The notes under the pieces were generated by a model that saw only the letters and a list, made by a program, of their open reading frames with translations, was not told the origin of the DNA and did not search any database. 64,000 nucleotides of DNA from a virus (lineage: Duplodnaviria > Caudoviricetes): the IMG/VR virus record IMGVR_UViG_3300009082_000959; one strand, given 5' to 3'. Shown one piece after another: positions 1,209-61,143 of the stretch; within the stretch, counting starts at the first letter, position 1; each line of letters opens with the position of its first letter. Both the position numbers and the translations under genes were made by a program.

Positions 1209-1625
1209 ATGAACCTCGGAAAAGTTATAAAAATATATGAAATCATTAAAAATAGATTACCTAAAACTTATCCTCACCCAAAACTCGCCTTCTTTGAGGA
1301 TGAGGATTGCATGTTAAGCAACACTAATTTAAAAAAAATAGAAAACGAAAATGTATATGCGGTATTTTCCCCAACCACAGAAACGATATGCTTGCCACTT
1401 AAAATGACCTTTGAGTATTATGGGAAAAATGGAAAGTATATAAACACAGTTAATTTAAATAAATTCACTGATGTAGAAATTGCTCATACTTTATTGCATG
1501 AGTGTTGTCATATGTATGCTGGCGAAAAGTATGGATATTTTTCAGAAAAATATCATGATGAAAAATATTGTGATACATTTGCGAGTAGGTGGGTAAAGGT
1601 TTTGGTTAAGGAAAAATTACTATGA
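1209..1625 (+). CDS. HExxH zinc metallopeptidase-like protein
   Basis: IAHTLLHECCHMY motif. Start at ATG 1209 preferred because the ORF-track extension lies inside the IS remnant. Confidence 0.55.
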   Translation: MNLGKVIKIYEIIKNRLPKTYPHPKLAFFEDEDCMLSNTNLKKIENENVYAVFSPTTETICLPLKMTFEYYGKNGKYINTVNLNKFTDVEIAHTLLHECCHMYAGEKYGYFSEKYHDEKYCDTFASRWVKVLVKEKLL

Positions 1626-1661: not shown

Positions 1662-1696
1662 GTCGCAACACCCAAAAATGTTGCGTGGATTGAAAC
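1662..1696 (+). CRISPR. Solitary type I-C-like CRISPR repeat unit (no array)
   Basis: GTCGCAACACCCAAAAATGTTGCGTGGATTGAAAC: 5' GTCGC, 7-bp stem CGCAACA/TGTTGCG and 11-nt 3' handle TGGATTGAAAC, as in type I-C repeats. Confidence 0.8.
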
Positions 1697-1758: not shown

Positions 1759-1923
1759 ATGTCTTTGGCACTTGTAAAATTATCAAAAAAGCGCAATGGA
1801 CGAATATATTATTTTTTGGATTACATTAGTTTAGATGTAGCAAGATTGGGCGTTCAAATACAAGGTGAGGAACACAATAAGAATGAGTGGGCCCTGGCTG
1901 AAATTGTAAGAGAATTTAAGTAA
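1759..1923 (+). CDS. Hypothetical 54-aa protein
   Basis: SD AAAGGTGG upstream; MSLALVKLSKKRNGRIYYFLDY...; followed by a terminator. Confidence 0.55.
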   Translation: MSLALVKLSKKRNGRIYYFLDYISLDVARLGVQIQGEEHNKNEWALAEIVREFK

Positions 1924-1934
1924 TATAATTTATG

Positions 1935-1968
1935 GGTTGCATATGCCTGAAAGCATATGCAGCCTTTT
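1935..1968 (+). terminator. Rho-independent terminator
   Basis: GGTTGCATATGC-CTGAAA-GCATATGCAGCC followed by TTTT. Confidence 0.75.
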
Positions 1969-1995
1969 AGGTATCGAATATATTTATGTTTTCCA

Positions 1996-2024
1996 TTGAC
2001 AATTGTTGACAAACGGTATATTAT
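1996..2024 (+). promoter_or_regulatory. Sigma70-type promoter for tnpB, probably giving a leaderless mRNA
   Basis: TTGACA-N17-TATTAT; ATG at 2032 is 7 nt after the -10 box with no SD between. Confidence 0.6.
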
Positions 2025-2031
2025 TATAATA

Positions 2032-4560: not shown

Positions 4561-5353
4561 ATTACTTTTTAGAAACACACTGGCGGAAGAAAACGAATTA
4601 CAAATAGCAAAAAAATATTTTGATATAAAACAGTATCGTTCAGAAATTACTCCGGGAGCGTTGATTATAGGCAGATATTCTGTTCTACCTTACTATAATG
4701 AACTGGAAAAAGATATACTAAAATTAGGCGGCAAACTAATTAACTCCTACGAAGATCATCTTTATATTGCTGACATAAAAAATTGGTATCCTGATTACCG
4801 AGACATAACGCCTATGACTTGGTTCGACCCATCAGAAGCAATACGGTCCGACTTTAACGGTTCCTTTGTTTTAAAAGGCAATGTGAATTCTCGAAAGCAA
4901 TTGTTTAACACACATATGTTTGCTGCGAATAAATCTAATATAATGAAAGTTTATTGCAAATTATTAGACGACACTCTTATTCAATATCAGGGAATTTGTG
5001 TCAGAGAGTTTGTGAATTTAATCAACTACGGCAAAGACCAAGTAACCGGTTGCCCAATATCAAAAGAGTTTAGGCTTTTTATTTTAGACGGCAAAGTTCT
5101 TTCAAAGGGATATTACTGGTCAAATTTTGTTGAAGAAGCAGAAAATCCGGACCCAAACGAAATACCAGAAGACTTCATACAAGACGCAATCAAAAGATGC
5201 CCAGTAAGATTTTTTGCTATTGACTTGGCCCAGAAAACTAACGGTGATTGGATGGTAGTTGAATTAGGAGATGCACAGATGGCTGGTCCATCTTGTAATG
5301 ATTTAGATAGTTTATATAAAAACTTAAAGGAAAATCTATGCAAAAAAGTATGA
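4553..5353 (+). CDS. ATP-grasp protein (R2K-like clade)
   Basis: SFVLKG, ICVREFV, KEFRLFILDGKV, YYWS, FFAIDLAQ...WMVVELGDAQMAG. Confidence 0.7.
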   Translation: MIELLFRNTLAEENELQIAKKYFDIKQYRSEITPGALIIGRYSVLPYYNELEKDILKLGGKLINSYEDHLYIADIKNWYPDYRDITPMTWFDPSEAIRSDFNGSFVLKGNVNSRKQLFNTHMFAANKSNIMKVYCKLLDDTLIQYQGICVREFVNLINYGKDQVTGCPISKEFRLFILDGKVLSKGYYWSNFVEEAENPDPNEIPEDFIQDAIKRCPVRFFAIDLAQKTNGDWMVVELGDAQMAGPSCNDLDSLYKNLKENLCKKV

Positions 5354-6609
5354 CAGATGTATATTTGAGTGTTTTAAAACACAAATGGCATTTAAGTGTG
5401 GCAAGAATGCAATTGTTACCAGAAGAAGAAATTAGATTATATTTAATGCCAACGATTAATGGCTATTATTGGCGCTCCATAGTTATAGTTAGTGGAAGTC
5501 AATGCAAGTATCAATGACATACATTTATATTTATGCACTCAAACATAAATGGTGTCTTAATTTATGTGGTTCAGTATTTAAGAACGAAATTTGTTTAAGT
5601 ATGAGACCGGCAAGGAGCAGTAATTGTTATATTTTTCGTGTAAAGGAAATCTATGCAAGCAACAATGATGTATGTATATTTAAGTGTCCTAAAATATGAG
5701 TGGGGATTAAGGTTGGGGCAAAAAAATCCAATATTACAAAACAACAACATTTGTGTATGCTTGACTCAACCAACAATGTCTGGCGGTTATGGTTATCGTG
5801 AGTATAATTATTTAATTAAGGCAAAACAATGAGACCGATTATAAAGTATACATATTTATATGTATTTAAACACAATTTTGGTTTATCCGTTGATGTTCTT
5901 ACAAAAAATGAATTAGTGTTACTTGCAACACCTCTAAATAACAATGATTATTGTCCCTTTCGAATATTTATTAAGCAGGTAAGATTATGCAAGCAAATAT
6001 GATGAGTTTGTATTTTTATACATTAAAATATAATTGGCATTTAGAGAATACCCATATATCGGTGAAAATAAAATTTACATCGACATTAGACCAAGCGTAA
6101 ATGGTTTTCATTGCTTCCATATTATAATTGAGGGAAACACATGCAACCTAAAATGAAAACCGTATATATTCTTAATTTGAAGCACAACTATTGTGTGGAC
6201 AGCGCAGAAATAATCGATAGCGAAATTACAATATATTTAAGGTCATCCATTAATAGTTTTAAACGGCATACTATTACGATATACGAGGATCAAGCAGCAT
6301 GCAATTAGATATGGTAGATTTATATGTTTATGTGTTGAAATCTAAATGGAGTTTGGAGCGTGAAACAATTATATACGAAAATATGCTTTGGATATATATG
6401 AGACCAAAACTTAATAGTTTTTACCGTTATCGTATTACAATTAAAGGAAATTTATGCAAGAGTCTATGAAAGCCATATATATTCTTAATTTAAAATATAA
6501 TTACCAAATATTTAAAGATAAGATAGTAATAAACAATAATAAAATTAGATTAACTGTTGGTGGAATTCAAGTTGAGATGCATTTAAAATGGAGGAACAAA
6601 GATGATTAA
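5338..6609 (+). repeat. Array A: 8 tandem overlapping short ORFs of the 'MQxxM..YI.VLK' family (starts 5338, 5502, 5653, 5829, 5987, 6141, 6299, 6454)
   Basis: Manual translation, e.g. MQKSMTDVYLSVLKHKW, MQVSMTYIYIYALKHKW, MQATMMYVYLSVLKYEW, MQPKMKTVYILNLKHNY, MQLDMVDLYVYVLKSKW, MQESMKAIYILNLKYNY. About 160-nt period; several have AAGGA SDs. Confidence 0.8.
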
Positions 6610-7201
6610 TAAAGAGTTTGCAAATATAATGAACAATGCAAAAGATTTAACAATTGGGCAAGTATTTAAAATAATTACTCATCTTAAATTCAAAACAGTG
6701 GCCGCCGTTGTTGCTTTTTTTGTGGCGATCGTATCAGGTTCTTTTGTGATAGGTAGATATTCCTATCAAGAAAAAACGGCACTTACCCTCGATAGTCCAT
6801 TTGGTATGAGGTTGCTGATAAGTGAAAAACAATACGAATTCAAAAACCTAATCTTAATGGAAGACCCAATTAATTTGGCAGACAATAGTGTAATACTAAC
6901 TATACGAGAAATACAAAATGCCTTTGATATAGTTCCGATAGGAAAAATAGTTGCACGAAAAGAAAAAATTGAGTTGCCAGGAGTTTTTGGGTTGTTCAAT
7001 TTTAAGTCAATCGGAGTGGCCAAAGCATCAGAAGAGTTTAATTGGAACGGCCACGAGAACGATATGAATTTTAAGGAAGTATTTATTGATAGCAACACTA
7101 TAAACAGATACTACGAAGACGGTTGTATTTTAGAGTATAAAGTTTGCGAGGATAGAAAATCTAACAAAGGTTCTTTTAGATGGATACAACAAAATCATTA
7201 A
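6602..7201 (+). CDS. Hypothetical membrane protein
   Basis: Hydrophobic segment VAAVVAFFVAIVSGSFVIG; SD GGAGG upstream. Confidence 0.6.
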   Translation: MINKEFANIMNNAKDLTIGQVFKIITHLKFKTVAAVVAFFVAIVSGSFVIGRYSYQEKTALTLDSPFGMRLLISEKQYEFKNLILMEDPINLADNSVILTIREIQNAFDIVPIGKIVARKEKIELPGVFGLFNFKSIGVAKASEEFNWNGHENDMNFKEVFIDSNTINRYYEDGCILEYKVCEDRKSNKGSFRWIQQNH

Positions 7202-8629
7202 TGCAGGGTAGTATGAAAAATTTATACCGCGATGTATTTAAACATAATTTTTATGCAAAGGAAGTATATATTATTGAATGTTATACTTTAATTCGGTGTT
7301 TAAATAACCATCACGAATATGAAGTTTATCACTGTTACTTTAAATAAAGGACATTATTAATGCAATCAGAAATGATGAATGTATTTAAATGTGGAAATAG
7401 AATAAATGCTATTTGGATTATGGAAGGATATGTTGATATTTATTTTAAAGATTCTTTTTGGTATTCTTATTTTTTAGGTGCGCTTATTTTGAATAACGGA
7501 GTCACAAATGCAATCAGATATGATAGCTTTATACTGTGATGTATTTAAATGTAATTGTAAGATATCAAGTTATAAAATATTACCAAAATTTCGCGCAAGT
7601 TATGGAACACACAGAAACCACATTAGAGTAAGTTGCGAGGGATCATCACAACATGATTTTTATATTATTTGGTATAAAAAATGATGCAACCAGAAATGAT
7701 AAGATTATATAAAAATATGTTTAAATGTCATTACAAAATAGTAGAGCATTACTTTATAGAAAACAACAGTGATAATAAAAAATGGGTAGTTGTAAGGGCT
7801 AATGGTGGGTTTCCATATTATACTGCTCACTTTATTGAGTGTGCAAATGAATAATATACAATCATTGATGGGAAATAATATGAAAATGCTGTATGCCGAT
7901 GTATTGAATCGTGGCCTTAAAATTGTGAAAGCGCCCATTTTTCGTGGCAAATTTATGTATATTTTCGTCGAGGTTGGTCCGGGAAGAAATGTATGTAGTA
8001 TATTTCGCTGCACAATTTAGGTGAGAAGACAATGCAATTTTATATGAAACAATTATATTGCGATATTTTTATGAGAAAATATAAAATAATAAGTTATAGT
8101 GATGAATTAAGATATGTTAATTCTAATGAAAAAATTATTGAAATAGTTTGCGGTGAGAATGGGTATATTTATCATTATTCTATCCATCACAAATAAGGAA
8201 ATCTACTAATGCAATTTTATATGAAAGTGTTATATCGGGATTATTTTAAATATGGATATAAAATAAACAATGTATATATCGATGATTTATCTAATGATAT
8301 TTTAAATATTTATTGTCATACATGTGAGTATCAAACATATACCATTAGAATTGGCTTTAATTATATATATGACATATGAAAAGTATATAATTAAAGCCAA
8401 TTGATATTTATAAAAGTTTAAATTTATGTATGTTTGTTTTAAAGATTTAATGTAGCTTACTCATATACTATAAGGTTTAATAAAAATGCAATATAGTATG
8501 AGACAATTATATATAGATATATTTAAATATGGAGAAAAGCCAAAAAGTGCTACTATATCACATAAAAAAATTGTGATATTTAGTTCATATGGTGATTCGC
8601 TACTTAGATATACGATAGATTTAGTTTGA
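7201..8629 (+). repeat. Array B: 8 recognisable (+1 decayed) short ORFs of the same family (starts 7201, 7360, 7508, 7684, about 7844, 8032, 8209, 8486)
   Basis: MQGSMKNLYRDVFKHN, MQSDMIALYCDVFKCN, MQPEMIRLYKNMFKCH, MQFYMKQLYCDIF, MQFYMKVLYRDYFKYG, MQYSMRQLYIDIFKYG. Confidence 0.8.
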
Positions 8630-8653
8630 CACTTGTGTTTTTTTAACTATACT
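8626..8653 (+). promoter_or_regulatory. Sigma70-type promoter
   Basis: TTGACA-N16-TATACT upstream of SD AAGGAG and ATG 8671. Confidence 0.65.
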
Positions 8654-8670
8654 ACATATCAAGGAGACAA

Positions 8671-8889
8671 ATGAATAGAGAAATTTTAAGAAACAAAGCG
8701 AAGAAAATGTATAAAGAGAACATAAAAAATGTTGCAAAGAATCAAAGGATATCTTTCAATGAGTTTTTTAAACGATACCGCGAGTCTCTCAAAAATAAGA
8801 GTTCAGACATCGTTGAGACAGAAGGCCAAGAAGACTTTGACTTGGAACAAGTAGCGAATGTGAATGAAGTAACGGAAAAGAAAGGTTGA
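8671..8889 (+). CDS. Hypothetical protein
   Basis: ORF with strong SD and upstream promoter. Confidence 0.65.
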   Translation: MNREILRNKAKKMYKENIKNVAKNQRISFNEFFKRYRESLKNKSSDIVETEGQEDFDLEQVANVNEVTEKKG

Positions 8890-8919
8890 TAAAGTAAATA
8901 TAATACTCTTAACAATTAA

Positions 8920-11639
<2,720 letters not shown>

Positions 11640-22651: not shown

Positions 22652-22903
22652 ATGAAAAACGAAGAAATGGAAACAATGTATGTGGAGTGCATGTGTGAAG
22701 ACCAATCACACACTTTAAGGTTTTCACAAATAGGTGAAGATGTTTGTGTATCAATGCACCTAACTATGTTTGGATTTTGCGTCCGACTTTGGAATGCTCT
22801 GAAATATATCTTTGGCCATCGATCGAAGTTTGGTGATTTCGAGGAAACCATTTTGGAAAGAAAAGATATAAAAAAGATAGTTGGGTTTCTGAAAAATGTC
22901 TGA
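22652..22903 (+). CDS. Hypothetical protein (CxC...H)
   Basis: MYVECMCEDQSHTLRF. Confidence 0.55.
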   Translation: MKNEEMETMYVECMCEDQSHTLRFSQIGEDVCVSMHLTMFGFCVRLWNALKYIFGHRSKFGDFEETILERKDIKKIVGFLKNV

Positions 22904-25900
22904 ATATATGCAAGATTTTTATAAATCTGTTTTTAAATACGGGACGAAAATTATAAAAAAATACGAATTATGTAGTAATAATTTGTCCATTGATTTAAAA
23001 AACAAGGGTGGGTATTCCGGGATTAGATATTATTTTTATTGCAGGATAAATAAATATGATATTGACTGACGAAGAAAGAATATTGTATATTAAAAGAATA
23101 TATATTTATCTTTTAAAAAAAAAGGAGTGATAGCAAAAAGCCATACACGTGATGCTTTTTATCATAGCGTAGTTACGATTGGTGTTCCGGGAGACATATT
23201 TTGTGCAGACAATTATTTATCTGAATGTAGGTGATTTGTGCAATACGGAATGATGAATGTTTATATTATGTATTTCAAACGCAAACATAGTATTTATGCC
23301 GGCGGTAAAATTAAAGAATTTAATAATATATATTTGCGTGTAGATTTTATAATTAATGGGTATGTTAGGGGCTACACTATACTGCAAAAATAATGTTGGA
23401 GTAAGTTATGCGCGAATCTATGAAAATGGTTTATGTTAAATTTCTAAAACACAAACAAATAATATACAAATATGAAATTTATCAATATTTTGGCAAAGAA
23501 TTTGTAGCGATAGAGTTTAATGGTTTTGGCGTTTGGCCTTACCGAGTTTCAATAGAGGTAATATAGGTGGCAGACTATGCAGCAACATATGAAAATAGTT
23601 TATATTAGATTTATGAAAAAACAACAACAAATATGTGCATATAAAATTAGACTCAATTATCTGACGGTAGATTTTAATATATTCGAAAGTATTTGGCATT
23701 ATTATATCAATTTTTAAGAAAGTTAAATCATGCAATACGAAATGATGCAAATATATACTAAAATTTTAAAACATGGTCGTAAAATTGATTCTTATAGTAT
23801 GTTGTTTGATTCTACTTGTTTAGAGGTTAATATTTTTCCTTCCACTTATTTTATATAATATCGGAGTAGTTTATGTGTGGTCTTATGAGGATAGCGTATA
23901 TATGTGTTTTAAAAAAGAATTGTGATATTTGTATATCCGATCGCATTCCAACTACATCTGGGTATGATAAAATTAAATCAAAACCACCATCGAACGACAT
24001 CTGCTTTTATATTTCGGATAAATTTTAATCATGCAATATGAAATGATTGACCTTTATATTGAAATCCTAAAATATGGTTCCAAAATTAATAAATATTATA
24101 TGGTTGGTAATGATTATTTGGGTTTAGATATTTATATTTTCCATTTTTATATTAAACAGAAAGAACAACAATGACTGATGCGATGAAGAAATTTTATATT
24201 TATGCTTTAAAATATGGATACGGGATTTACATAAATGAGTGGCGGTCAATTAGCCTCGGCGGCGATAGAATTTGTATTGAGCTTTATCCTCCCACGAAAA
24301 ATTCTTAATTTTGTTTTAAGGTAAAATAATGGACTGTATGATGCAAGTATTTTATATTAGTATATTAAAACAAAAATATATACCAGAAATAACAGAAAAG
24401 TTAATAACTTCTGATGGCCGTCATAGGGTTTTTATTAGATTAAAAGGCGTAGATTATTCTGAATTCTTTTTTACAAGCGAGTTTTGATTATGCAACAATC
24501 TATGGTAAATTTATATATTGATGTATTAAAATATAATTACCACATTGTGGGAGCATTTTCAGCAGAATATTATAATTTATATTTCACATTGCGTGAAGAC
24601 TACACACATTATTTTTTTATAGAGAAAACGTGAACACTCACTCAATATACATTGACTTTTTCAAAAACAAATTCCCAATTGTTTGGTATCACGTTTTTGA
24701 GAGCGGCGGAACTTGGTGGGTTGAAATCGAAACAGAATGGAATAAATATTTTATACGACAAGGCAAACAATGAGTATTCCAAATAGTATGCAGTCAATAT
24801 ATATTCAAATTTTAAAATATAAATGGTCAATAACAAAGTCTTATCCAGTAGTGAGATTTTGTGGCATTGATAGTGTGGCCATAGAAATAAATTGCCTGCC
24901 TTATATACTGGTGCAAAGGGCGCAAAATGACAGAATGTGGCATTAATTCTCTATATATTAGTTTATTTAAAAACAAACACACAATAAAAGATTATCGAAT
25001 ATTTAACCTTAATGGTTTTTCATTTATTATCATCTACACAAATGAAAACTTCAACAATAAATATTATGTTCTTTCAGGAGTCTAAATGTATAATTATATT
25101 GCACCAAATGGTTTTTGCAAAAATGCAATTTTTGGCATATATATTCAAATTTTCAAAAACAACTGGTCCGGCAGAGTGGTTGGAAGAGTAAATGAAAAAT
25201 TATGCACAAGTATAACAATAGAATTAACAGACCCAAAAAATAAATATAATTGTGAAACAATTTATAAAGAATTATTTGCCGGAGATTTACGGACACGATA
25301 ACAAAATGACAGAAAATATAAGACAAATTTATAGGCAAGTTTTTAGGAACAAATGCACCTTGTGGCAAAAAACAGACACTGAAATAATAGTGATGCATAA
25401 CACTTTACAATTATATAGACTTTATGTTTGTGAGGAGCCGGTGCCAGGAATTTATTTTTTCTAATGAGGTAAAAATGGATTGGAAAATAGCAAACATTTA
25501 TCGCGGTGTTTTTAAGTTTGGCGAAAAAATCGAAGTTATAAAAGCAAACAAAAACTTTTTAATGGCCAGCACGACAGATTGTGATGGTTATAAGACTTTA
25601 TATTATTTATATAGTCTTGAAAGCAAATAGGTAGAGGTATGACAATGCTACCATATCGAACAATTTATCGCAGAGTTTTAAAATATAACTATACTATGAC
25701 ACAAAGAAATATAAATAATTATGGGATACATAGTGAAATTTCTTTTTGGTTGGGGCAAACACTAGCAAGCTCATTTATTGTTTATGGTAATGGAGTTTAT
25801 TCTTGGAGAACTTAATGGCAATTCCAATAGCGTGTGAAATGACATATATAAAAGTTTTAAAATACGGCTACACGATGGAACAAACGAAAAAATGCTCACC

Positions 25901-28758
25901 GAAGCCAGAAACAGCGTAGAAAAAGCAAAGAGAAATTTTTTGATTATGAAATTAGCGGGGTTAAGTCGCAACACCTAAAATGTTGCGTGGATTGAAACAA
26001 ACAGAATTCTATGGCCCTCACTTTATTTGGACTGGAAACCGATGCAAGTAGAAATGAAATATTTATACATAAACATACTTAAATATAACAACAAAATATA
26101 TAAAATGAAGCTCTCCAATTACTGGCTAATATTACAAGCAAACGATGAAGCACAAAATTATCATAAAGTTTATATTATATACGACAAGGAAATAAATGAC
26201 TAATGGCATGAAAGATTTATATATCTATGTATTTAAAGAAAATTGCAAAATATATAAACCATTTTATTGGGGTGACTACCTTGTGATTAATTGTAAATCA
26301 TCATTTAGTGATCCTGTCTTTGATTGCTGGATTAAAACATGCAAGTAGATATGCAAAATGTTTATATAGATTTCTTTAAGCATAATTACACAATAAAACA
26401 AACATCACATTATAGTAAGTGGTGGAAACTTGTTATTAGAAATAGTAAGGGAACTTATTATTATAACTATTATTATCGAGTGAAACATAAATGACAGAAG
26501 AAATGCAAAGTTTATATACAAAGATAATTAAGTATAATTACAAAATATATGAGGTAGGATATTTGGACGCTTGGTGTATATTATATGTTAAAAGTAAAAG
26601 TGCTAATGGGTTTTACACACAAAATTGTTTTATTGAATGGAAACATGAATGACTACTGGTATGAAAGACATTTATAGATATTTCTATAAGCATAATTATA
26701 CAATAGAAAAAATTCCAACCCATTTAGGCAATACATTAGAGCTTCGCATAAAAGATAAGAACGATTTATCTTGCTCTTATTTTTTCTTTTATGGTGGAAG
26801 ATAAATGATTAAAGATATGCAAAATGTTTATATAAATTTCTTTAAGTATAATCACACAATAAAACAATATGGTAATTGGTGGCAACTTGTTATTGGAAAT
26901 AGTAGTGGAGGCTATTATTACAACTATTGTTGTCGGGTGGAAAAGTAAATGACTAATGGCATGAAAGACATTTATATCTATGTATTTAAGTTTGGTTTCA
27001 AAATATATCAAAATCACACTTACCGCGATTTTTGCGAGTTTTATGTGGTTGGCCCTCTTGAAACTTTGCGTCTTTGTGTAATTGATTAGTGGAGAAATAT
27101 TATGATACCGAGTGCAATGAAATTTGTATATATAAAATCATTTAAGGGTGGTGATAAAATTCATGCATATCACAATCATCACGAACTTGGTTTTCTTGAA
27201 ATTTGTTTTAAGCATTGGTTTGTTGGCAGTATAATAAGGCGTTTTATTCACTATGGAAAACGAAAATGCAAGTAGCAATGAAAGACATTTATATAAGTGT
27301 ATTTAAATACAATCATAAAATATATGATTATTATCCCTATGATGATTTATGCGTAATCTATATTAAAGATAAATACAACATTTTTACGGGGAGATATAAT
27401 GTCAGACATGCAATATGATATGAAAAAACTTTATATATCTATTCTTAAGCATAAAGCGCCCATACGCTCATGCACTAGACATACCAGTGGATTTTATGTG
27501 ATTAAGGCATATGTTAAAACAATTTATGTAGAAAAATTAAAGAGATACTATATTTTTAGATTACCGACGAGCAAAAAATGAAAGAGCACATAAGAGAAAT
27601 TTATATAAGTTTGCTCAAACGTAACTACACAGTATATGCATGTTTTAGGTCACCTGATGATTACGAATATATAATCGATCTTCGAGTAAGCTATTATTTT
27701 GCTTTCGATAGACATTTTCTTCGGCCACGGGAGTTGGAATGCAAAGAGATATGATAAAATTGTATGTTGATTTTTTTAAGTATAATGTTGCAATATATAA
27801 GATGGAAACGCCAGAATATTTGGAAGATACAGTTATGGTGTTTTGTGTGTCAAAATCTAATCTTTATTATTTTAATTATTGCACTATTAGAAAGTAATAT
27901 ATGATGCCACTTAATATAAAAAGCATTTATTTGAAATATTTTAAATTTAACCTTCCGATATTATCATTTTCTGAATCTGGATATGATGAGGGTGGATACA
28001 TAATTGATATTAAATCAACTCTTCCTACATATTTGGAGAGATATATTCTACTGCCAACATTATCTCGCCACACACTTGTTCGATTATAATATTTGGTGCC
28101 AAATGTCTTATGAAATAGCAACAATATATACCGAATTATTTAAGCACAAGGGAAGAATAATTGGTTTTAATCACTTAAACACTTACTATGACATAACAAT
28201 AAGTTTGTATGGTTCCTATGACGCGCATCACTTATATATTACTTAAAGGGAAAAATATGCCAGATAAAATTAGACATCTTTATATGTGTATGTTTGTTTG
28301 GGGCTGGACTATAAATAAAATAATTGAAAGAAATAACCATTATAGTATAGAAATTTTTTCTGATTCAATGAAGTATAAATATAATTATAGATTGGAAAAA
28401 TAATGATATTGCCATATAAAATTAATAATATTTATGTATTATTGTTTAAGCGTAATTGGATTGTGAATGAAGTAATTGAGAGAGATGAATGTTATGATAT
28501 TTATATATCTGCTTCACCTCGCATAATCAGCGCATGGAATTTATATAGATTGGACAAACAATGACTTGGGCAATGAACAGAATTTATTTTAGGTTGCTAA
28601 AACATAAAAATACAGTTGTTTCAGTAGATAAGCAAAATGAAATAAATGCATATGTTGTAAAATTACGCGACCAAACATCCCAGTGTGTTTATACTTACGT
28701 TCTTTATGACGATAATTCACCAGCAATAGTATTTAATAAAGGATCAAATAATGATTGA
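22896..28758 (+). repeat. Array C: about 36 tandem short ORFs of the 'M-x3-M..YI.VFKYN' family
   Basis: Manual translation, e.g. 22896 MSEYMQDFYKSVFKYG, 23730 MQYEMMQIYTKILKHG, 24031 MQYEMIDLYIEILKYG, 24490 MQQSMVNLYIDVLKYN, 26042 MQVEMKYLYINILKYN, 26196 MTNGMKDLYIYVFKEN, 26339 MQVDMQNVYIDFFKHN, 26805 MIKDMQNVYINFFKYN, 27739 MQRDMIKLYVDFFKYN, 28561 MTWAMNRIYFRLLKHK. About 160-nt period. Confidence 0.85.
25965..25998 (+). CRISPR. Second solitary type I-C-like CRISPR repeat unit, embedded in array C
   Basis: GTCGCAACACCTAAAATGTTGCGTGGATTGAAAC; differs from 1662-1696 only in the loop. Confidence 0.8.
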
Positions 28759-30012: not shown

Positions 30013-30765
30013 ATGGATCGTAATATTAGTAGCCTATACATAAATATATTTAAAAATAACTGTAAAGTTTATGAGTTTGTAAATGAAAAAAACTTGTATA
30101 TTATTAGAGTGGAATTACGCGGTTGGTATAAGCCATGTTTTTTGTGGAAATAATATAGAAAGCGGTTGAAATGTATTACCTTATGAGTGTTGTATATATT
30201 AGTGCATTAAAAGATAAATGTAAGATTAATATTGCAGAAGATGAATTCTCATATATTGTTTGGGTTGTTCCAAAAATTGGGTATAGTGTTCCCTATTATC
30301 TAAAAAGGTAATTGAATGAGATACGAAGTGTTTTATATGTATTTTTGGTTGTTTAAACATAATCTTAAAGTTATTGAGTTTATAGAAGAGGAAAATGAAT
30401 ATATAATTTATCTTGAACCAGGTCGTAGCTTGCGTCCATATGTTTTTAAAAAATAGAAAGAGAATTATAATGATTTATGGTATGCGTTATATTTACAAGA
30501 AGTTCTTTAAATATAATTACAAAATTATAGGATTTGAGTATAAAAATGAAAAATTATTAATTTATGTTAATGATATGTTTCCACGTGCCATATGAAATTC
30601 TTTGTTAAGGCGCCGGGCATGAGTTATTATATGTGTAGTATTTATATACAGTTGCTTAAATATAAATACAAAATTATAAAATTTAAAGAAACAAACGATA
30701 AATTAATATTTTATTTTGATGATAATATTATCGACCTATCTTTTCCCTACGAGGTTAAAAAATGA
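30013..30765 (+). repeat. Array D: 5 short-ORF family members (30013, 30171, 30316, 30470, 30619)
   Basis: MDRNISSLYINIFKNN, MYYLMSVVYISALKDK, MRYEVFYMYFWLFKHN, MIYGMRYIYKKFFKYN, MSYYMCSIYIQLLKYK. Confidence 0.75.
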
Positions 30766-31220: not shown

Positions 31221-31558
31221 CAGACGCTTTTATACAAGAACTATTAAATAAAAAACGTCTTGGCAAAGAGAAACTAAAATTAGTGTTAAATGAACTTTTC
31301 AAAAGAGGAAATTTGGACCAAGAGGACATAAAATACAATGAGTCAAAATTTCCCTTCACCAATAAAGAGTTTGCCGCTGCGTTTGAGCACTTGGTCGATG
31401 GCAAGAAACCATCGAACGCGACGAACGACAACGAAGTGTGGATTTTTGACCACAGGGGCCATATTTTTACGGCAGAAATAATCATGGGCCAAGGGTCATC
31501 ATATATTTTATCAATGGGTTCTCGTTACTCAAAGTTGCCAGTGATAAAATTAAAATGA
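31205..31558 (+). CDS. Hypothetical protein
   Basis: ORF track. Confidence 0.5.
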   Translation: MDKNLADAFIQELLNKKRLGKEKLKLVLNELFKRGNLDQEDIKYNESKFPFTNKEFAAAFEHLVDGKKPSNATNDNEVWIFDHRGHIFTAEIIMGQGSSYILSMGSRYSKLPVIKLK

Positions 31559-32243
31559 GTCCATCGATTTATAGATTATACGTGGATATATTTAAGCACA
31601 AAATAAAGGCAAAGTGGAAGACCCGTAAGGGTGAAAATTATTTTATGATTTATTCGAGCCAGGAAAATGGAATAAACCACTTTTATTTGTTGGTTGAAAC
31701 TAAAAATGGATAAGTCAGTTTATAGATTATATATAGATATTTTTAAAAACAATATTAAGGCCGACTGGACTGTTACCTATATGATTGATTATGTGTGGGT
31801 TGTTGCGGAAGAAGACAATTATGGGTTTCGTAGTTACTTTTACATATTACAGGAAATAAAATAATGGATTATTCTGTTCGTGAAATGTATATAAATATTT
31901 TAAAATCAAGATCAAAAATATACGATTATCATGTTTATTTTGATAATTCTGTCCGAATTTCTGTTATAGGTAATAATTTTAAAAGATATCACGTTATACT
32001 TGTTTCTTCTAATAAACTTAAAAATAAACATATAATTTGGTCGCGTTATGGACTTTATAATAATCCACGCAAGCATTGGGAATAAATATGAGTTCAAACA
32101 TTTATAGACTATACATTAATATTTTTAAATACGGCGGTCGAATACTAAATCAATTTACAGAACATAATGGAGATATAGTAATAAACTTATCAAATAGTTG
32201 GTTTTGTTCTGTTTTAAGGAGTAAGAATGATTTACCTGGATAA
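31555..32243 (+). repeat. Array E: 4 short-ORF family members (31555, 31707, 31864, 32088)
   Basis: MSPSIYRLYVDIFKHK, MDKSVYRLYIDIFKNN, MDYSVREMYINILKSR, MSSNIYRLYINIFKYG. Confidence 0.8.
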
Positions 32244-34792: not shown

Positions 34793-35743
34793 ATGAAAAT
34801 TTGCACCAAATGTAAAGTTGTGAAAAATGAAAATGAATTTAGCAAAGATAAAAGAAATAAAGATGGACTACATTATAATTGCAGAGATTGCAATAGTGAA
34901 AGAAATAAACAATACTATGAAAAGAATAAGGGAAAAGTTATTAAACATGCAAAAAATTATTATGAAAATAATAAAGAAAAAATTGCCATAGCAAAAAATA
35001 AATATTACCTGAACAATAAGGAAAAATTTATAGAGTATCAAAAACAGTATCGGGAAAATAATGTAGAAAAGATATACACATATCAAAAAGAATATCGCGC
35101 AAAAAATAATGAGAAGGTAGTAAAATATTCCAAAGAATATTGTGCGGCAAATAAATATAAAATAGCAGAATATCAAAAAGAATACTATGTAAAAAATAAA
35201 GATACAGTAGAAAAATATCAAAAAGAATACTATGTAAAAAATAAAGATACAATTTTGATTAACATAAGACAATATTATAAAAACAATAAAGAAAAAATTT
35301 CGGGCAAGGCGAAACAATATCGTAAGAATAATCAAGAAAAGATTGCGATAATGAGAAAACACTATCGATCAAAGAATGTTGCGAAAATATCGGAAAGCTA
35401 CAGAAAAAGATTGAAAACCGATATTAATTATAAATTGTCTTGTAATCTTAGGTGCCGTTTAAATAGGGCAATTAAAAATAATCAAAAGGCTGGTTCTGCC
35501 GTTAAAGATTTGGGCTGTTCAATACCAGAATTGAAAATTTGGATAGAACAACAGTTTAAACCCGGAATGACTTGGGAAAATTACGGTGAGTGGCACATTG
35601 ATCATATAATACCTCTTTCAAAATTTGATTTAACGGATAGAAAGCAATTTTTGAAAGCTTGCCATTAGTTTAATTTACAGCCACTTTGGGCCAAAGACAA
35701 TTTAAAGAAATCTAATAAATATAAAAAAGGAGATAATTTATGA
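34793..35743 (+). pseudogene. HNH homing endonuclease with in-frame TAG at 35666-35668
   Basis: WENYGEWHIDHIIP...ACH*FNLQPLWAKDNLKKSNK; the frame continues to TGA 35743, which overlaps the next ATG. Confidence 0.85.
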
Positions 35744-40699: not shown

Positions 40700-41302
40700 A
40701 TGTCGTGGATAGATAAAGATGATCCAGTTGTTGAATATGATAATTTTATAGATATCATTGTAGAAAAAGTTCCAATTTTACAAGTTTTGGATAAATTTGG
40801 AATTGAATATTCGGAGTGCAAGAGTGGAAATTTTACACATAGGGCGAAATGTCCTCTACCACTTCACAGCAATGGTTGCGAAAGAACTGCGTCTTTTTAT
40901 ATTTCTGATATAAATAATAGTTTTTGTTGTTTTGGCTGCAATTCAAACTCTAATTCAATAGGGTTCGTGGAATTATATACTGGAAAACCATACAATGTTG
41001 CTGCAAGATGGTTGGCAGAACAGTTTGGTGTGTGCGGAGATGGAAATGAAGATATTACCATTAAACGAAGGTCACCGGAAGAAATTCCAATCACCCATAT
41101 ACATAAATCTGGCGTTGTTATAAGAGATTTTCTTACGACAATGAAAGACACAGAAGACTATAATAAATGGTGTAAGTGGGCTGATAAAAGATTCGATACA
41201 CTTGATAAATACATAGATACACTAAAAGATGACGAGTGGGAGACAGCCAAAAAATATTACGATAAGGTTGTTTCATTTTTAAACAAAGGTGGTAGTAAAT
41301 GA
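40700..41302 (+). CDS. Stand-alone CHC2 zinc-finger (DnaG zinc-binding domain) protein
   Basis: KCPLPLH...ERTASFYI...FCCFGC; no TOPRIM domain. Confidence 0.8.
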   Translation: MSWIDKDDPVVEYDNFIDIIVEKVPILQVLDKFGIEYSECKSGNFTHRAKCPLPLHSNGCERTASFYISDINNSFCCFGCNSNSNSIGFVELYTGKPYNVAARWLAEQFGVCGDGNEDITIKRRSPEEIPITHIHKSGVVIRDFLTTMKDTEDYNKWCKWADKRFDTLDKYIDTLKDDEWETAKKYYDKVVSFLNKGGSK

Positions 41303-42501
41303 AAATAGGAATCGTTGGTGATACTCACGTCGGAAGTGGCTATAATTTTGGCAAAACAGATGGAGCAACCCAGCTAAATACAAGGTTATTGGATTTGGTT
41401 GAAACTTTTGACAACACAATAGATGAATTTAAAAAGAGAGATGTAAAGTTAGTTGTTATTACTGGTGATGTTTTTGATAGCAAACATCCTTCTTCGTCTC
41501 AACTTAATGCTTTTTCAAAGTGTGTCCAACGCGCCATAAAAGAAAAAATGGAAATTGCGATAGTGGTAGGAAATCACGATCAGCAAAGGGCGATATCAAC
41601 GACAACGGTTGATATATTTGAGGTTTTGGAAATACCAGAAATATCAGTATATGCCCATGCCGGTTCAAAAATAATTAAAGATGAAGATGGTCAAGAGTTT
41701 GGTTTAATTTTTTTGCCATATCGTGACAGGAGAATGATTGGAGAAAAAACTAATACAGATGCAATTGCCGTTATAAAGAAAAACTTAAATGACATATGCG
41801 CTTCTCTTCCGCAAAAGAGAATTGTTGTAGGGCATTTCATGGTTGATAAGCCGGTTTCAGGAGAGAATCCAGACTCTTTCAGTATAAACGAGTTAGTTTT
41901 GCCAATAGATACATTTGATTGTGTTGATTTGGTTGTTATGGGCCATGTTCATAGACACTCGATAGTATCAAACAAAAAACCAAAGATAATAAATATCGGC
42001 TCAATGGATAGAGTTTCTTTTGGTGAAAAAGACCATACAAAGGTTTCCTTGGTAATAGACACAAAAACACTTGAAACAGAAATAATAAAAAGTAAAGTTA
42101 GAAATTTTATAGAAATTTCTCTGGATTATTCTCCAAAAGATAAATATTATAAAAACCAAATTAATGATAAAATTATCGCAGACATAGACAAATTCAATGC
42201 GCAAACAAATTTGTCAGGTTCTATATTGAAATTTTCTGTGAAAGTAAGACCAGATGATTTATGTTTTGTTGATAATGAGAAAATATTAAGTAGTCTTGCG
42301 GCAAAAAATGTAAAATATATAATGCCCATACATGTTGCTGCATCAAATCCAAGACAAATGAGGAACAAAAAAATAACAGAGGATATAAAATGCCAAGATG
42401 CTATGTTGGCCTACATAAATGGGCTAATAGAACCAGAGAACATAAAAAAGAAATTAATAAAAATTGCCACGCATATTATTGATGAGGTAGATTCTAAATG
42501 A
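41299..42501 (+). CDS. sbcD: SbcD/Mre11-like nuclease
   Basis: GDTH, TGDVFD, GNHD, GHF, GHVH, IGSMDRVSFGE. Confidence 0.9.
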   Translation: MKIGIVGDTHVGSGYNFGKTDGATQLNTRLLDLVETFDNTIDEFKKRDVKLVVITGDVFDSKHPSSSQLNAFSKCVQRAIKEKMEIAIVVGNHDQQRAISTTTVDIFEVLEIPEISVYAHAGSKIIKDEDGQEFGLIFLPYRDRRMIGEKTNTDAIAVIKKNLNDICASLPQKRIVVGHFMVDKPVSGENPDSFSINELVLPIDTFDCVDLVVMGHVHRHSIVSNKKPKIINIGSMDRVSFGEKDHTKVSLVIDTKTLETEIIKSKVRNFIEISLDYSPKDKYYKNQINDKIIADIDKFNAQTNLSGSILKFSVKVRPDDLCFVDNEKILSSLAAKNVKYIMPIHVAASNPRQMRNKKITEDIKCQDAMLAYINGLIEPENIKKKLIKIATHIIDEVDSK

Positions 42502-44579
42502 CACCAGATTATTTAAAAATTGAAAACTTCTTGTCCCACGATCAATCAGAGGTGGATTTTAAAAAATTCGACCTCGCTCTGATACTTGGGTCATTTGACG
42601 GAGAAACAGACCAATCAAACGGTTCAGGTAAAACCGCCATCATGGCCGCTATTTTGTGGGCTCTTTTTGGAAAATCCAGGCATAAGAAAAAGGATGGAGT
42701 TGTAAAGTGGGACAAACGATCGTGTAGGGTTGAGTTTTCATTCTGGATGAATAATGATTTATACAGAATTACACGGACACGAGATAAGATTGTTGGAGAA
42801 TCTGATGTTGTATTTGAAAAATGGAATGGTTCTCAATACGATAGCATAAGCTGTGATACAAATTCTGCGACAGATAATAAAATAGAAGAAACAATAAATA
42901 TTAATTATGAAGTTTTCATAAATTCTATTTATTTTAAACAAAATGATATATCTATGTTCGCTACTTCTGCTCCCGGAAAAAGAAAAGATATATTAAAAGC
43001 GTTGCTAAAAATGTCCAAGTGGGACCAATATCAGAAAAAATCAAAAGACCGCGCAAAGATTTTATCTACCAAAATAGAAGAAAAATCAAAATTATTGATA
43101 CCATTTGATGGATTGCAACTTGCTTTAAACACTTGCGTTAGTGATATAGAAAATTTAGAAGTATTGTTGGCAAAGAACACAAAAGAATATGATGAAAACA
43201 ATAGTAAGTTTGTTGGTTTGTCATCACAGTATCACACATTATATTCTGATTCAGTTGATGATAATGAGGTAAAATTATCGAAACTTCAAAAAGAGTATAG
43301 CGTGGCGGTTAGTAGAAAGAATAAATTATCCGCCGATATAATTGAAAATAATACATCTATAAGCAACAGCAATGATAGTGTTGCATCTATAAAACAAAGG
43401 GCCAGTGTTTTAAGAGAGAAAGTAAAAGCAAAGAAAGATATAAATTTACAATTTTTGCGTTCAAAGCTAATAGAAGGAAAATCAAAAGATGCATCTATGT
43501 CTGATAAAATATTGGAATTAAACAAAGATGTAGAATTATCAGGTGAGTGCGACCTTTGTGGAAAACAAATAACTAAATCAGAGGCCGATGCCATAAAGGA
43601 ATCAAGAATACAAAAATTATCAGATTTAAAACAAAAACAATCTGAAATAAAATCAAAAATTTCAAAGCTATCAAAACTATTAAAGGAACAAGAGAAAATA
43701 GTTGAGGACGGTAATTCGGCTGAATTAGAAATAAGCAAATTAGAAACAAAGATATCAAAACTTCAATCTGATATAAATAACAAAATTACAGAAAATGAAA
43801 GAATTTCTATTGAATTATCAAAAATAGATGAGAAAAAATTTGAAAGAGAAATTGATTTACTCAAAATAAAGGCAGACGCAAATGGTAGAAAATTATTAAA
43901 AAAAGAAATTGATGATTTGGAATTACTATTAAAATCAACAAAATTATCTGGAAGTAATTTGAGCAAAGAATATGGCCATAAGCTTGGCAAAAAGGAAGAA
44001 TTTGTTGCAAGTATATCTGCCCAAAAAGAAATACAATCTCAAATAGAAAGACTTAAATCCGAGTTTATTATATATGACAAATTAAAGAGTTATTTTGGCA
44101 AAGATGGAATTCAGTCAATTATAATAGAGAATGTTATAGGTGAGCTTGAAAACTATACAAATGAAACTCTTGAAAAGATTTGCAATGAACCCACATCTAT
44201 TTCAATAAAGACGCAAAGACAAAATGAAAATGGGTCTTGGGCGGAAACCATTGAAATATCTACGAAAGTTGGACAAAGAACAGATGATTTTGAATCTTTG
44301 TGTGGCGGAGAGCAGTTTAGGATATCATTGGCAATAAGATTGGCTTTAAGTAGTATTTTGTCGAGTAGAATGGGCGGAAAGATTAAGTTTTTACTTTTAG
44401 ATGAAGTAAGTTCAAGCCTTGATAATAAGGGATTGAGAATGTTTATGGACACAATAAAAGGATTGAGTAATGAGATGAAGGTTTTAGTAATAACCCATGA
44501 TGACCGATTAAAAGATATGTTTGAGCATGTAATAATGGTTGATAAGGGACCAAGCGGCAGCAGAGTAACTATGTCGTAA
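42498..44579 (+). CDS. sbcC: SbcC/Rad50-like ATPase
   Basis: NGSGKT Walker A, coiled coils, CDLC hook, LCGGE signature, LLLDE, ITHD. Confidence 0.92.
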   Translation: MTPDYLKIENFLSHDQSEVDFKKFDLALILGSFDGETDQSNGSGKTAIMAAILWALFGKSRHKKKDGVVKWDKRSCRVEFSFWMNNDLYRITRTRDKIVGESDVVFEKWNGSQYDSISCDTNSATDNKIEETININYEVFINSIYFKQNDISMFATSAPGKRKDILKALLKMSKWDQYQKKSKDRAKILSTKIEEKSKLLIPFDGLQLALNTCVSDIENLEVLLAKNTKEYDENNSKFVGLSSQYHTLYSDSVDDNEVKLSKLQKEYSVAVSRKNKLSADIIENNTSISNSNDSVASIKQRASVLREKVKAKKDINLQFLRSKLIEGKSKDASMSDKILELNKDVELSGECDLCGKQITKSEADAIKESRIQKLSDLKQKQSEIKSKISKLSKLLKEQEKIVEDGNSAELEISKLETKISKLQSDINNKITENERISIELSKIDEKKFEREIDLLKIKADANGRKLLKKEIDDLELLLKSTKLSGSNLSKEYGHKLGKKEEFVASISAQKEIQSQIERLKSEFIIYDKLKSYFGKDGIQSIIIENVIGELENYTNETLEKICNEPTSISIKTQRQNENGSWAETIEISTKVGQRTDDFESLCGGEQFRISLAIRLALSSILSSRMGGKIKFLLLDEVSSSLDNKGLRMFMDTIKGLSNEMKVLVITHDDRLKDMFEHVIMVDKGPSGSRVTMS

Positions 44580-50971: not shown

Positions 50972-51340
50972 ATGCTATTTGCCATTGCTCTGCACCCCAC
51001 ATACATGACAAAATTTTCAGACATCATTACACAAAAAACAACAAGCTGCTCAAAGTGTTTCTCGATGTTGTATGGCTTGCCGTGCCAAATAGACGCAGAC
51101 ATTGCAAACTTTTTAAAATCATTTGGTGGTCCAATTTATCCTTTGCAATCAGTGTCTTTGCTAAAAATAGACTCGACCGACGGATTTCATATAGAGGGAA
51201 GGCTTGGAGCAAAAGTTATAAAATTTGGAATGCCAAAAAAATACGAAAACAGTGATTTGGCAAAGCTTAAAAGAAAAATAGAATTTGAATTACAATTAAA
51301 AAAGTGGTTGGAAAAGAAATTAAATATAAAGATTGGATAG
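50972..51340 (+). CDS. Hypothetical protein
   Basis: ORF track; start uncertain. Confidence 0.5.
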   Translation: MLFAIALHPTYMTKFSDIITQKTTSCSKCFSMLYGLPCQIDADIANFLKSFGGPIYPLQSVSLLKIDSTDGFHIEGRLGAKVIKFGMPKKYENSDLAKLKRKIEFELQLKKWLEKKLNIKIG

Positions 51341-51344
51341 AAAA

Positions 51345-54300
51345 ATGAAAGATTTGTTTGTTAATCTGCATTCGCATTCGGCGCAGGGAAGTTTGGCGGA
51401 TAGCATGGTTACCGTTGATCAACTTTTCAATAGAGTAAAAGAATTAGGGCAAGAAGCAATTGCTCTGACAGACCATGGAACAATGGCAAGCGTTTTTGAT
51501 GCACGAAAAGCTTCCAAGAAAACTGGAGTAAAATATATACCAGGATGCGAAATTTACTTTGTTAATGATGTATCAGATAAAAAAGGCAAAAGATATCACT
51601 TGGTTCTTTTAGCTAAAAATGAAACAGGATACAGAAATTTACTAAAATTAAATTATCTTGGGTTCAAGTCTGCTCATTATGTTCCTGTTATAAATAAAAT
51701 ATTTTCCGTTGTTGATTGGAATATGCTTGAAGAATATCATAATGGAATTATTTGTCTTACTGCTTGCAGCTCTGGACCAATTGCTCGTGCGTTGTTGGCA
51801 ATTAAAGATAATAATCCAATCAATGAAGTAGAAAATTACTCTAATGCATTGGAAATAACAAAGAGACTCCAAAAAATATTTGGAGAAGATTTGTATCTTG
51901 AAATACAGCCACACGACCTAAAGGCTTATAGTAGAGACAGAAAAACAGGAGATGCATTACTGGACGCAAGTGGCAACCCAATAGTAAGTGTCGACCAACC
52001 ATATATTAATAAAAAAATAATTCAAATATCAAAAGAATTAAATATACCATTAACTGCAACTTGTGATGTTCATTACTTAAACAAAGAAGATGCCAAGGCA
52101 CACGATATGCTCATGGCGATAAATGAAAAGAAGCCACTTAATGATAAAAATAGACACCGATATGAGGTCGAAGAGTTTTACCTTAAGAGTAGCAGCGAAA
52201 TATTAAATTACTTTACAAGTCGTTTTGATGAAAACATTGCACTCGAAGTATGCAACAATAGCATTATAATAGCAAATAAGTGCGAGGACTCTAAATACAT
52301 AGACTCCGACAAAATAAGATTTCCTATTTTTGATGCATCAAAAGAAAAAGATTATGACAAGTTTTTGAGTTGGAATAAAAATCAATCTAATAAAACTTTG
52401 TCAGAGGACAAAGCATATATGAGATTTAAGTGCATAAATGCTTTTGGGAAAATGTATAGACACTTGAGCGAAGATGATAGGAAAATATACAAAGAAAGAC
52501 TCACAGAAGAAATAAAGGTTTTTGAGGAAAAGAACTTTTGTTCTTACATGCTTATAACGTCCGACTTTATAAATAAGGCCAAAGAACACGGTGTCAGAAT
52601 CGGTCCGGGTAGGGGATCGGTCGGAGGATCTCTTGTCGGTAATTTACTTGGCATTCATGAATTAGATCCAATACAATATGGTTTATTGTTTGAGAGATTC
52701 ATTAATAGAGAGAAGGTTGCATTTCCTGACATAGACACTGACTTTAGCCCGGACGGAAGAGAATGGGTAGAGCAATATGTTATAAAGAAATATGGAGAAT
52801 TGAATGTCGCTCATGTTTCAAATTTTTCAAAAATTACTCCAAAGGTTGTATTAAAAGATATAGCTCGCTCATTGGAAATAGGCGGCGGCAAGAGTGAAGC
52901 ATTTAAAATTGCAAATGATATCACTGACTCTATTTCAATTGATTCAAAAACATTTGATAATGCTTTGCAGGAATCAGCGAGCTTGAGGAAAATTTGCGTT
53001 GAATACCCAGACATAGAAAAATATGGCAGAAAATTAGTTGGATTGGAAAAAACATTTGCAACTCATGCTGCTGGAATTGTCATAAGTGATATAGATTTAT
53101 CAACTTATATTCCGTTACGATATGATAAAGATGGGATATTGGCAACGCAATATGAAAAGGAAAGATGCGAAAAGGTTGGTTTGATAAAAATGGATTTCCT
53201 TGGATTAGAGCATCTTAAAATAATTGATGGCGTTATAGCTAATTCCAAGAAATTAGGTCTTGATTGTCCGGACACAGTTGATTTGGCTCCTTTCGACGAT
53301 AAGGGCGTTTGGGATATGATTTCAAGAGGAAAGACATCTTGCGTTTTTCAAATGGGTTCAACTCATATGCAGGCAATGTGCAAGAGAATTAGACCAAGGA
53401 ATATAGAAGATTTAAGTTTAGTTAATGCCTTGGGTCGTCCATCAGCAGCAAAGAGTAGAGACTTATATATAGCAAGAAGAGATGGAAATAAAAAAGTATC
53501 ATATAAATATGATTTTTTGGAAAAAGCATTTAAAGAAACACTTGGTATTTGCGTGTATGAAGAACAGCTGCTTAAATTAGCAAGATACGCTGCTGGTTGG
53601 AGCTTAAATAAGGCCGATGGTTTGAGAAAACTAACAAAGCTAAAAGGCAAAGACCCAAAAATGGCAGCACAATTAGAGGGTGATTTTATAAATGATACTG
53701 TTGCTAATAGTGGATTAACCAATGAACAAGCCAAAGAAATTTGGAAAGATATAATAGAACCATTTGCCGGATATGGGTTTAATAAAGCACATGGAATATT
53801 TTATAGTTTAAATGGATATCATACGGCGTATTATAAACATCATTATCCAGCTCCATTTATGGCTGCTGTTCTAAAATCAGAGGTAGAGAAAACATCTTCA
53901 AATGCAGAAAAAATGAAAGAGTATAAGCAAGAAGCACAAAGAATGGGTATAAAGATTATAGCTCCTGATATAAATTTTAGCGAACATTCTTTTTCAGTGC
54001 GCGACCAAAAAACAATAGTCATGGGTTTTGGAACAGTTAAGGGCGTAGGAGATAAAGCAATTGAGAATATTTTAGAGGTAAGGTCTGTTGGTCCATTTAC
54101 ATCATTTGCCGATTTCTTGCATAGAACAAATTCAAGAGTTGTTCAAAAGAAGGTAATACAATCACTTGCGCAGGCCGGATGTTTTGATTCACTTGGTGTT
54201 TCTCGCCGTGGAGCATTTTTATATTACGCCGAAATAAGAACAAAGACAGCAAAACATATAGAAAAATTGGCAGATAAAAATAATGTTTTGGATGTTCTTA

Positions 54301-61121: not shown

Positions 61122-61143
61122 CAGAAAGGTATCGGAATAATTA

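Follow-up and report, generated by a model that had tools for sequence, protein, structure and literature searches.

We analyzed a 64,000-nt stretch of viral DNA (referred to below as the window) from the IMG/VR record IMGVR_UViG_3300009082_000959, a virus of the Caudoviricetes, which carries two solitary CRISPR repeats of the type I-C class. One of them, copy 2, at positions 25965-25998, is a complete and truly solitary repeat of this class, and the other, copy 1, is a near-identical sequence located far upstream of it. The reading that we prefer, and to which we give a probability of about 55%, is that both copies are co-transcribed viral solitary repeat units (SRUs) that act as an RNA anti-CRISPR (Racr) against type I-C systems. 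According to this reading, a mimic of the repeat of a type I-C host would be carried on an early polycistronic RNA of the phage + strand, and the Cas5c protein (Cas5d) of that host would recognise the base of the hairpin and the UGGAUUGAAAC tail. Cas7 and Cas8c would then assemble on an RNA that offers no useful guide, and the Cas subunits diverted in this way from the genuine CRISPR RNAs (crRNAs) would leave the host with a weaker interference.

Copy 2 is made up of an unpaired 5' GU, a stem formed by positions 25967-25973 and 25981-25987, the loop CCTAAAA and the tail TGGATTGAAAC at positions 25988-25998. Copy 1 starts 24,303 nt upstream of copy 2 and is identical to it in stem and tail, so that the loop alone varies (CCTAAAA vs CCCAAAAA, a loop length of 7-8 nt). 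Both copies are predicted to fold in the same manner, as a 7-bp stem with its loop, preceded by 2 unpaired nt and followed by 11 (the fold string of copy 2 is ..(((((((.......)))))))...........), and the GC content of the repeat element is 44% vs 28-30% for the background. The 14-mer shared by the two copies, GCGTGGATTGAAAC, is found exactly two times in the window, and the complete viral record of 105,248 nt adds no further occurrence. A looser search of the record, for the tail with up to 3 mismatches together with an upstream hairpin, gave no further credible copy, and no degenerate repeat was found within 200 nt of either copy on either strand. A CRISPR array or mini-array consists of at least two repeats with regular spacers, and what the record holds is only two copies located 24.3 kb apart in 105 kb, with no match to Cas5d or Cas7 anywhere in the 105-kb record. 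These are the features by which SRUs and Racr candidates are defined, that is, an intergenic repeat match on a virus with no other repeats and no cas genes nearby. The Rfam database gave no match at its gathering thresholds, and its generic CRISPR-DR models were reached at E-values of 2-4 only.

A preliminary description of this DNA, made from the sequence alone, had reported a solitary type I-C repeat with a near-identical copy 24.3 kb away, an invariant stem and handle with differences in the loop only, dissimilar downstream sequences, and a location of copy 2 within an array of micro open reading frames (micro-ORFs). Our results agree with it on each of these points, the position, copy counts and fold for the repeat itself and the comparison of the copies for the loop. 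The flanks of copies 1 and 2 have no significant similarity beyond about 5 nt, and no common leader or promoter can be defined from them; copy 2 lies between the micro-ORFs at 25815-25919 and 26042-26203. The same description had taken the invariance of stem and handle as consistent with selection on RNA structure, and this part did not hold up as well. There are two loop differences between two copies, one of them an indel in an A-run, and the chance that both would fall in the loop is about 0.05 (p, from two copies), which is of small statistical weight.

The class of the repeats was determined from the published layout of type I-C repeats and from a comparison with natural arrays. In type I-C repeats, as reported for four species, a stem of 7 nt closed by a pentaloop is flanked by overhangs of 2 nt on the 5' side and 11 nt on the 3' side, and Cas5c recognises the cut site, the adjacent UGG and the 3' overhang but neither the loop nor the 5' overhang (PMC8524198). 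The phage repeat fits this layout exactly except for its longer loop (7-8 vs the usual 4-5 nt). The stem base, the UGG and the 3' overhang needed by Cas5c are all kept in the phage copies, and the variation is confined to the loop, which Cas5c tolerates. For the comparison we used the consensus repeats of 31 natural type I-C arrays. Across the 31 array repeats 18 columns are invariant, in part through ascertainment because the arrays were retrieved with patterns containing GCGTGGATTGAAA, and neither phage copy deviates from any of them. All 7 stem pairs are kept in both copies, and the helix covaries strongly across the set, with 98% of the cells paired, 31 cells changed on both sides and an observed score that none of 500 shuffles could reach. 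The phage copies thus carry the conserved positions of the repeats found beside cas5d-csd1(cas8c)-cas7.

The closest natural repeat, GTCGCAGCGCCTAAAAAACGCTGCGTGGATTGAAAC, was found in a metagenome locus, L131. Compared with copy 2 it has two compensatory A-U to G-C changes in the stem and two extra A in the loop, and it shares with the phage repeat the 5' GTCGCA, a large A-rich loop of the CCTAAAA type and TGCGTGGATTGAAAC. The loops of the L131 repeats measure 8-9 nt and provide a natural parallel to the long loop of the phage copies. L131 encodes Cas3, and its array is adjoined by Cas5d, Csd1 (Cas8c) and Cas7 (Pfam E-values of 4e-35, 1e-143 and 4e-99 for cas5d-csd1-cas7), which ties this repeat class to type I-C. 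It differs from the phage in that its repeats are 36 nt long and arrayed with 35-nt spacers beside cas genes, on a contig with 54% GC, and because of this GC content the L131 organism is unlikely to be the host of the phage. The locus itself (Ga0209656_10002939, positions 4685-11044) has cas3 divergent from cas5d-csd1-cas7, with no cas4, cas1 or cas2 before the downstream array, and it bears two arrays with the unusual 36-nt repeats, one of them with a CCTAAAAAA loop. A search of the metagenomes of the Joint Genome Institute (JGI) with a looser repeat pattern gave many type I-C arrays plus several lone type I-C units on environmental contigs, which shows that such lone units are common there. 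One example is the contig Ga0315284_10033725, whose minus strand has two lone I-C-type units, GTCGCAACTTATTA(T)GTTGCGTGGATTGAAAC, located 964 nt apart and different by 1 nt in the loop. Each of them lies directly behind ...ACTATAATGTCA, a -10 box, and the contig is therefore another case of a multi-copy type I-C SRU, here with promoters of its own.

The action that we propose for the phage repeats has been described for other viruses. Cas6f binds and cleaves RacrIF1, from which an aberrant filament of Cas7f is nucleated, RacrIC1 is a type I-C SRU that is located on one RNA with acrIC5 and rescues phage targeted by type I-C, and SRUs in general are widespread in viruses, with 2,103 identified in viral sequences by SRUFinder (PMC10651486). 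Every credible gene of the window lies on the + strand and both copies are therefore sense-oriented; judging from this gene block, their co-transcription by read-through is plausible.

Several results weigh against a decoy function. No convincing sigma-70-type promoter was found upstream of either copy, while many Racr candidates and SRUs sit directly behind a predicted promoter (PMC10651486). The small-protein neighbours of the repeats, micro-ORFs included, have no Pfam or PHROG match, and no recognisable acr gene is present next to the repeats. A profile search with the polymerase III alpha subunit (PolIII-alpha) of the phage identified 22 related viral records (the closest with 56-62% identity), and within one mismatch the I-C tail is absent from all of them except for one chance-like match, so that there is no sign that the repeat has been maintained. 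None of the arrays in 185,579 species genomes has the exact repeat; its 3' 17-mer gave 65 single matches there, about the number expected by chance. In the JGI metagenomes the strict repeat pattern is absent and the looser pattern gave no identical array. In addition, a host with a cognate type I-C system is an assumption of this reading. Finally, the action of RacrIF1 relies on a Cas6f that remains bound to the hairpin, whereas the I-C nuclease keeps to the handle, so that a type I-C SRU may inhibit by a different route.

The window was found in one public run, a freshwater-sediment metagenome that is probably the source DNA sample, and the contigs of this sample contain no variant of the repeat locus. 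A low-depth unitig of 104 nt from the same sample, aligned to positions 25963-25998, carries at its end a variant of the repeat, 36 nt long, that has two substitutions and a GC inserted in the loop and is preceded by 66 unrelated nt; the 30 nt preceding the variant have no match in the phage record or in IMG/VR. This unitig looks like a fragment of a real array and hints that a matching host type I-C array exists. The phage repeat itself provides a search image for the host: in the same wetland samples, a repeat resembling GTCGCAACA...TGTTGCGTGGATTGAAAC would be sought in type I-C arrays. The gene for a 226-aa protein that neighbours the repeats is also present on the NCBI record CACVHS010000001.1 (GCA_902730985.1), which is identical to the window over the 12.7 kb compared. 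Table S1 of the study of huge phages lists the genome that we infer to be the source with CRISPR-Cas N and Host Spacer Match N, and in its gene-taxonomy profile 92.5% is unknown while Proteobacteria, at 3.7%, lead among the named groups (PMC7162821).

The PolIII-alpha of the phage, which is of the DnaE type, does not exceed 33% identity to any entry of the phage reference collection, and scans for close relatives with three phage proteins gave almost nothing. In the 22 related records the micro-ORF family was not found and the genes flanking the array are mostly absent, so that the array position itself is not present there; for the 226-aa neighbour, the closest homologue has only 48% identity and is located in a different context. 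Elsewhere the window encodes a GroEL-type chaperonin beside an HNH endonuclease (8920-11639), an SbcCD pair (41299-44579) and the DnaE-type PolIII-alpha (51333-54743). Two genes, at 34907-35344 and 62437-62829, contain tandem runs of a 45-nt unit that encodes 15 aa and is rich in K, Y, N and E (e.g. KQYYENNKEKI), and these two loci share 300 nt with 73% identity (35416-35715 vs 62862-63161).

Table 1. Positions in the window of the two repeats and of the features that surround them.
Feature	Position	Strand	Remarks
SprT/metalloprotease-like gene	1209..1625	+	Ends 36 nt before copy 1
Copy 1, solitary type I-C-like CRISPR repeat	1662..1696	+	35 nt, GTCGCAACACCCAAAAATGTTGCGTGGATTGAAAC; loop CCCAAAAA
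Small open reading frame	1759..1923	+	54 aa; starts 62 nt after copy 1
TnpB-like gene	1957-3198		Follows the 54-aa frame; 260 nt downstream of copy 1
Tandem array of micro-ORFs	22896..28758	+	About 36 paralogues of 42-71 aa; contains copy 2
Truncated member of the micro-ORF family	25815..25919	+	34 aa; directly upstream of copy 2
Copy 2, solitary type I-C-like CRISPR repeat	25965..25998	+	34 nt, GTCGCAACACCTAAAATGTTGCGTGGATTGAAAC
Unique sequence in spacer-like position	25999..26033	+	35 nt; between copy 2 and the ribosome-binding site of the next gene
TGGACTGGAAAC, Shine-Dalgarno context (GGAAAC) of the next micro-ORF	26028..26039	+	Ends 2 nt before ATG
Member of the micro-ORF family	26042..26203	+	53 aa, MQVEMKYLYINILKYNNKI...; starts 43 nt after copy 2

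The genes around copy 2 (Table 1) belong to a family defined by the N-terminal motif MxxxMxxLYIxxFKYNxKI and by a variable, aromatic-rich C-terminus. About 60 paralogues of this family occur in the window in tight tandem arrays at 5338-8629, 22896-28758, 30013-30765 and 31555-32085. The member directly upstream of copy 2 is short, and after a run of six A (at about 25884-25890) a second frame, 25892-25978, continues to the length usual for the family and stops at a TAA in the loop of the repeat, so that the first 14 nt of copy 2 overlap the tail of the frameshifted reading frame. The gene at 25815-25978 is thus frameshifted or chimeric, and its change of frame could correspond to a pseudogene, an assembly indel or a slippage site. 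The sequence TGGACTGGAAAC, which had been noted earlier as a weak handle-like sequence downstream of copy 2, was rejected as a second repeat or handle. Its likeness to the repeat is at the level of chance (a score of 7 vs a shuffle mean of 7.8, matched or beaten by 270 of 300 shuffles), and the sequence constitutes the ribosome-binding context of the micro-ORF that follows. A GGA, GAG or AGG core is present in the Shine-Dalgarno window of 37 of 45 family members, in several of them as TGGAAA(A/C), and the TGGA..AAAC context of TGGACTGGAAAC recurs ahead of many family members. No terminator was called after either copy.

Copy 1 is located in a different setting, 48 nt before the Shine-Dalgarno box of an unrelated gene. 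Upstream of it, positions 1037-1200 are an orphan copy of the right end of another TnpB gene of the window, the one at 59526-61121 (1037-1200 vs 60972-61135, 164 nt, 77% identical). The SprT-like open reading frame was listed from position 1098, which falls inside this orphan right end, and for this reason the ATG at 1209 is the likelier start. The 164-nt right end is all that the two TnpB loci share and it does not include the repeat, and a link of the repeat to TnpB or insertion sequence (IS) elements was rejected on these grounds. Directly after the orphan end come 10 nt, CACGCAACAT (1201-1210), that show complementarity to the 3' arm in both repeats; the rest of the window holds 20 other 10-mer matches of this kind, with about 6 expected, and this one is probably a coincidence.

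An alternative to a functional decoy is that the repeats are inert relics, acquired from a host array by recombination or illegitimate insertion and without any function. Such an origin would agree with the lack of the repeats in all relatives, with copies that have no promoter of their own, with the position of copy 2 at the scar-like junction of a broken or chimeric gene, and with the weakness of a conservation argument that is drawn from two copies. Several features speak against a relic: both copies are intact in the stem, the cleavage site and the tail despite a genome of 29% GC, they lie 24 kb apart with unrelated flanks, and both are in the sense orientation and between genes, copy 2 overlapping nothing but the tail of the broken frame. 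That two intact sense copies have unrelated flanks argues against pure decay, and we regard this alternative as unlikely. The TnpB gene downstream of copy 1 and the orphan right end upstream of it could also suggest an element that has nothing to do with CRISPR, either the end of a neighbouring TnpB or IS element or a generic hairpin such as a terminator or an RNase site. The identity of the 5' GTCGC and of the 14-nt GCGTGGATTGAAAC to type I-C repeats effectively rules this out; moreover, no T-run follows the hairpins and no terminator was called there, the right end common to the TnpB loci lacks the repeat, and copy 2 lies 33 kb from the nearest TnpB.

The remaining alternatives assign a role to the sequence downstream of the repeats. 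The 35 nt after the repeat could be the guide of a crRNA-like RNA (of the Cracr type or a one-guide unit) that steers the host Cascade to a host promoter, for example that of a cas or toxin gene, or to a competing phage. Regulators of this crRNA-like type that act on type I-C loci have been described in viruses (bioRxiv 10.1101/2024.10.29.618823), the RNA downstream of a lone repeat would be loaded given that the I-C Cas5c stays on the handle, and the candidate guides downstream of the two copies, AACAGGGCAAC... and AAACAGAATTC..., both start with (A)AACAG. We nevertheless consider a guide improbable, as no second repeat or pseudo-repeat closes it and the downstream sequence leads straight into the ribosome-binding site of a gene. 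The preliminary description had proposed a search for targets of this downstream "spacer" flanked by a TTC protospacer-adjacent motif (PAM), and none emerged: with the TTC PAM required, none of the matches of the 35-mers in 74 I-C-bearing loci rises above shuffled controls, the true host locus being out of reach, and they have no target in the phage's own record, the phage collection or the plasmid collection. A 23-nt match to the downstream sequence in one of the loci, L085, is in a coding region and is not a spacer.

The repeat could also be a Cas5c-dependent processing site, where a host cut of the polycistronic early RNA would set the stability or translation of the downstream micro-ORFs according to the presence of type I-C. 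The sense orientation inside a polycistron would suit such a site, as would the distance of 35 nt, one spacer length, from the handle of copy 2 to the next Shine-Dalgarno box; Cas5c products bear 5'-OH and 2',3'-cyclic phosphate ends (PMC8524198), and 5'-OH ends of this type are more stable (PMC10651486). Yet the geometry is absent at copy 1, where the Shine-Dalgarno box is 48 nt away, the micro-ORFs have no tie to defence, and a switch of this type is without precedent, all of which makes a processing site on its own quite improbable; it would also be compatible with a decoy and not exclusive of it. Two ideas of the preliminary description belong here. It had taken the co-transcription of copy 2 with the array as a mark of an anti-defence locus, and of this the co-transcription stands as plausible for a sense repeat in a + strand gene block, while the anti-defence role is without support, the neighbours having no Pfam or PHROG match. 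It had also suggested a possible link between the expression of the array and the presence of host CRISPR, and for this we found no support. Decoy and processing site could be combined, with a cut at 25987/25988 that would release the downstream mRNA with the 11-nt crRNA handle at its start. Cascade subunits would be loaded on the 35 nt that follow, a stretch that stops exactly at the ribosome-binding site of 26042-26203, and the expression of 26042-26203 and the stability of both fragments would report the presence of host CRISPR. We see only a slight chance for this combination.

Considered as RNA decoys, the phage repeats can be compared with several known systems. Among the mini-CRISPR arrays borne by viruses and the compact arrays of huge phages, for which a use of Cas proteins from the host is possible (Al-Shayeb et al. 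2020, PMC7162821), we find the same setting of huge phages from sediment with a host-type repeat and no phage cas genes; those arrays differ in having spacers and a median of six repeats, whereas our phage has single repeats and no spacer-repeat unit. The viral Cracr RNAs and arrays are crRNA-like regulators that include I-C-targeting examples, and they are, like our repeats as we read them, phage-borne derivatives of CRISPR repeats aimed at Cas proteins belonging to the host itself (Liu et al., bioRxiv 10.1101/2024.10.29.618823). A Cracr has a pseudo-spacer that lies between pseudo-repeats and matches the promoter of a host cas gene or of creT at 9 or more PAM-proximal positions, whereas the phage has one repeat at each locus, no flanking pseudo-repeat and no TTC-flanked match above the shuffles in the I-C loci examined. 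The SRUs identified by SRUFinder (PMC10651486) are essentially intergenic, close to a known repeat class and free of an adjacent full or partial repeat, as are the phage copies, whose sequence was not found in the available part of the supplementary tables of that study. The closest likeness in function would be to RacrIC1 of a Bifidobacterium pseudocatenulatum prophage (Camara-Wilpert et al. 2023, PMC10651486), which is also a lone type I-C mimic on a phage with no cas genes nearby and with Cas5c as its expected partner, and which shares its RNA with protein-coding genes, as we presume for the phage copies. RacrIC1 is located 11 nt behind an acrIC5 homologue in a temperate phage and its function has been demonstrated, while the present phage is huge and apparently lytic and has two copies, one of them in an array of micro-genes, with no known acr adjoining. 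The phage repeats are most likely a further example of the SRU or Racr, an RNA decoy already described as counter-defence, and not a new principle. If they are active, they would extend the type I-C RNA anti-CRISPRs to huge environmental phages and to a multi-copy form that has no promoter of its own and is carried inside polycistronic early transcripts.

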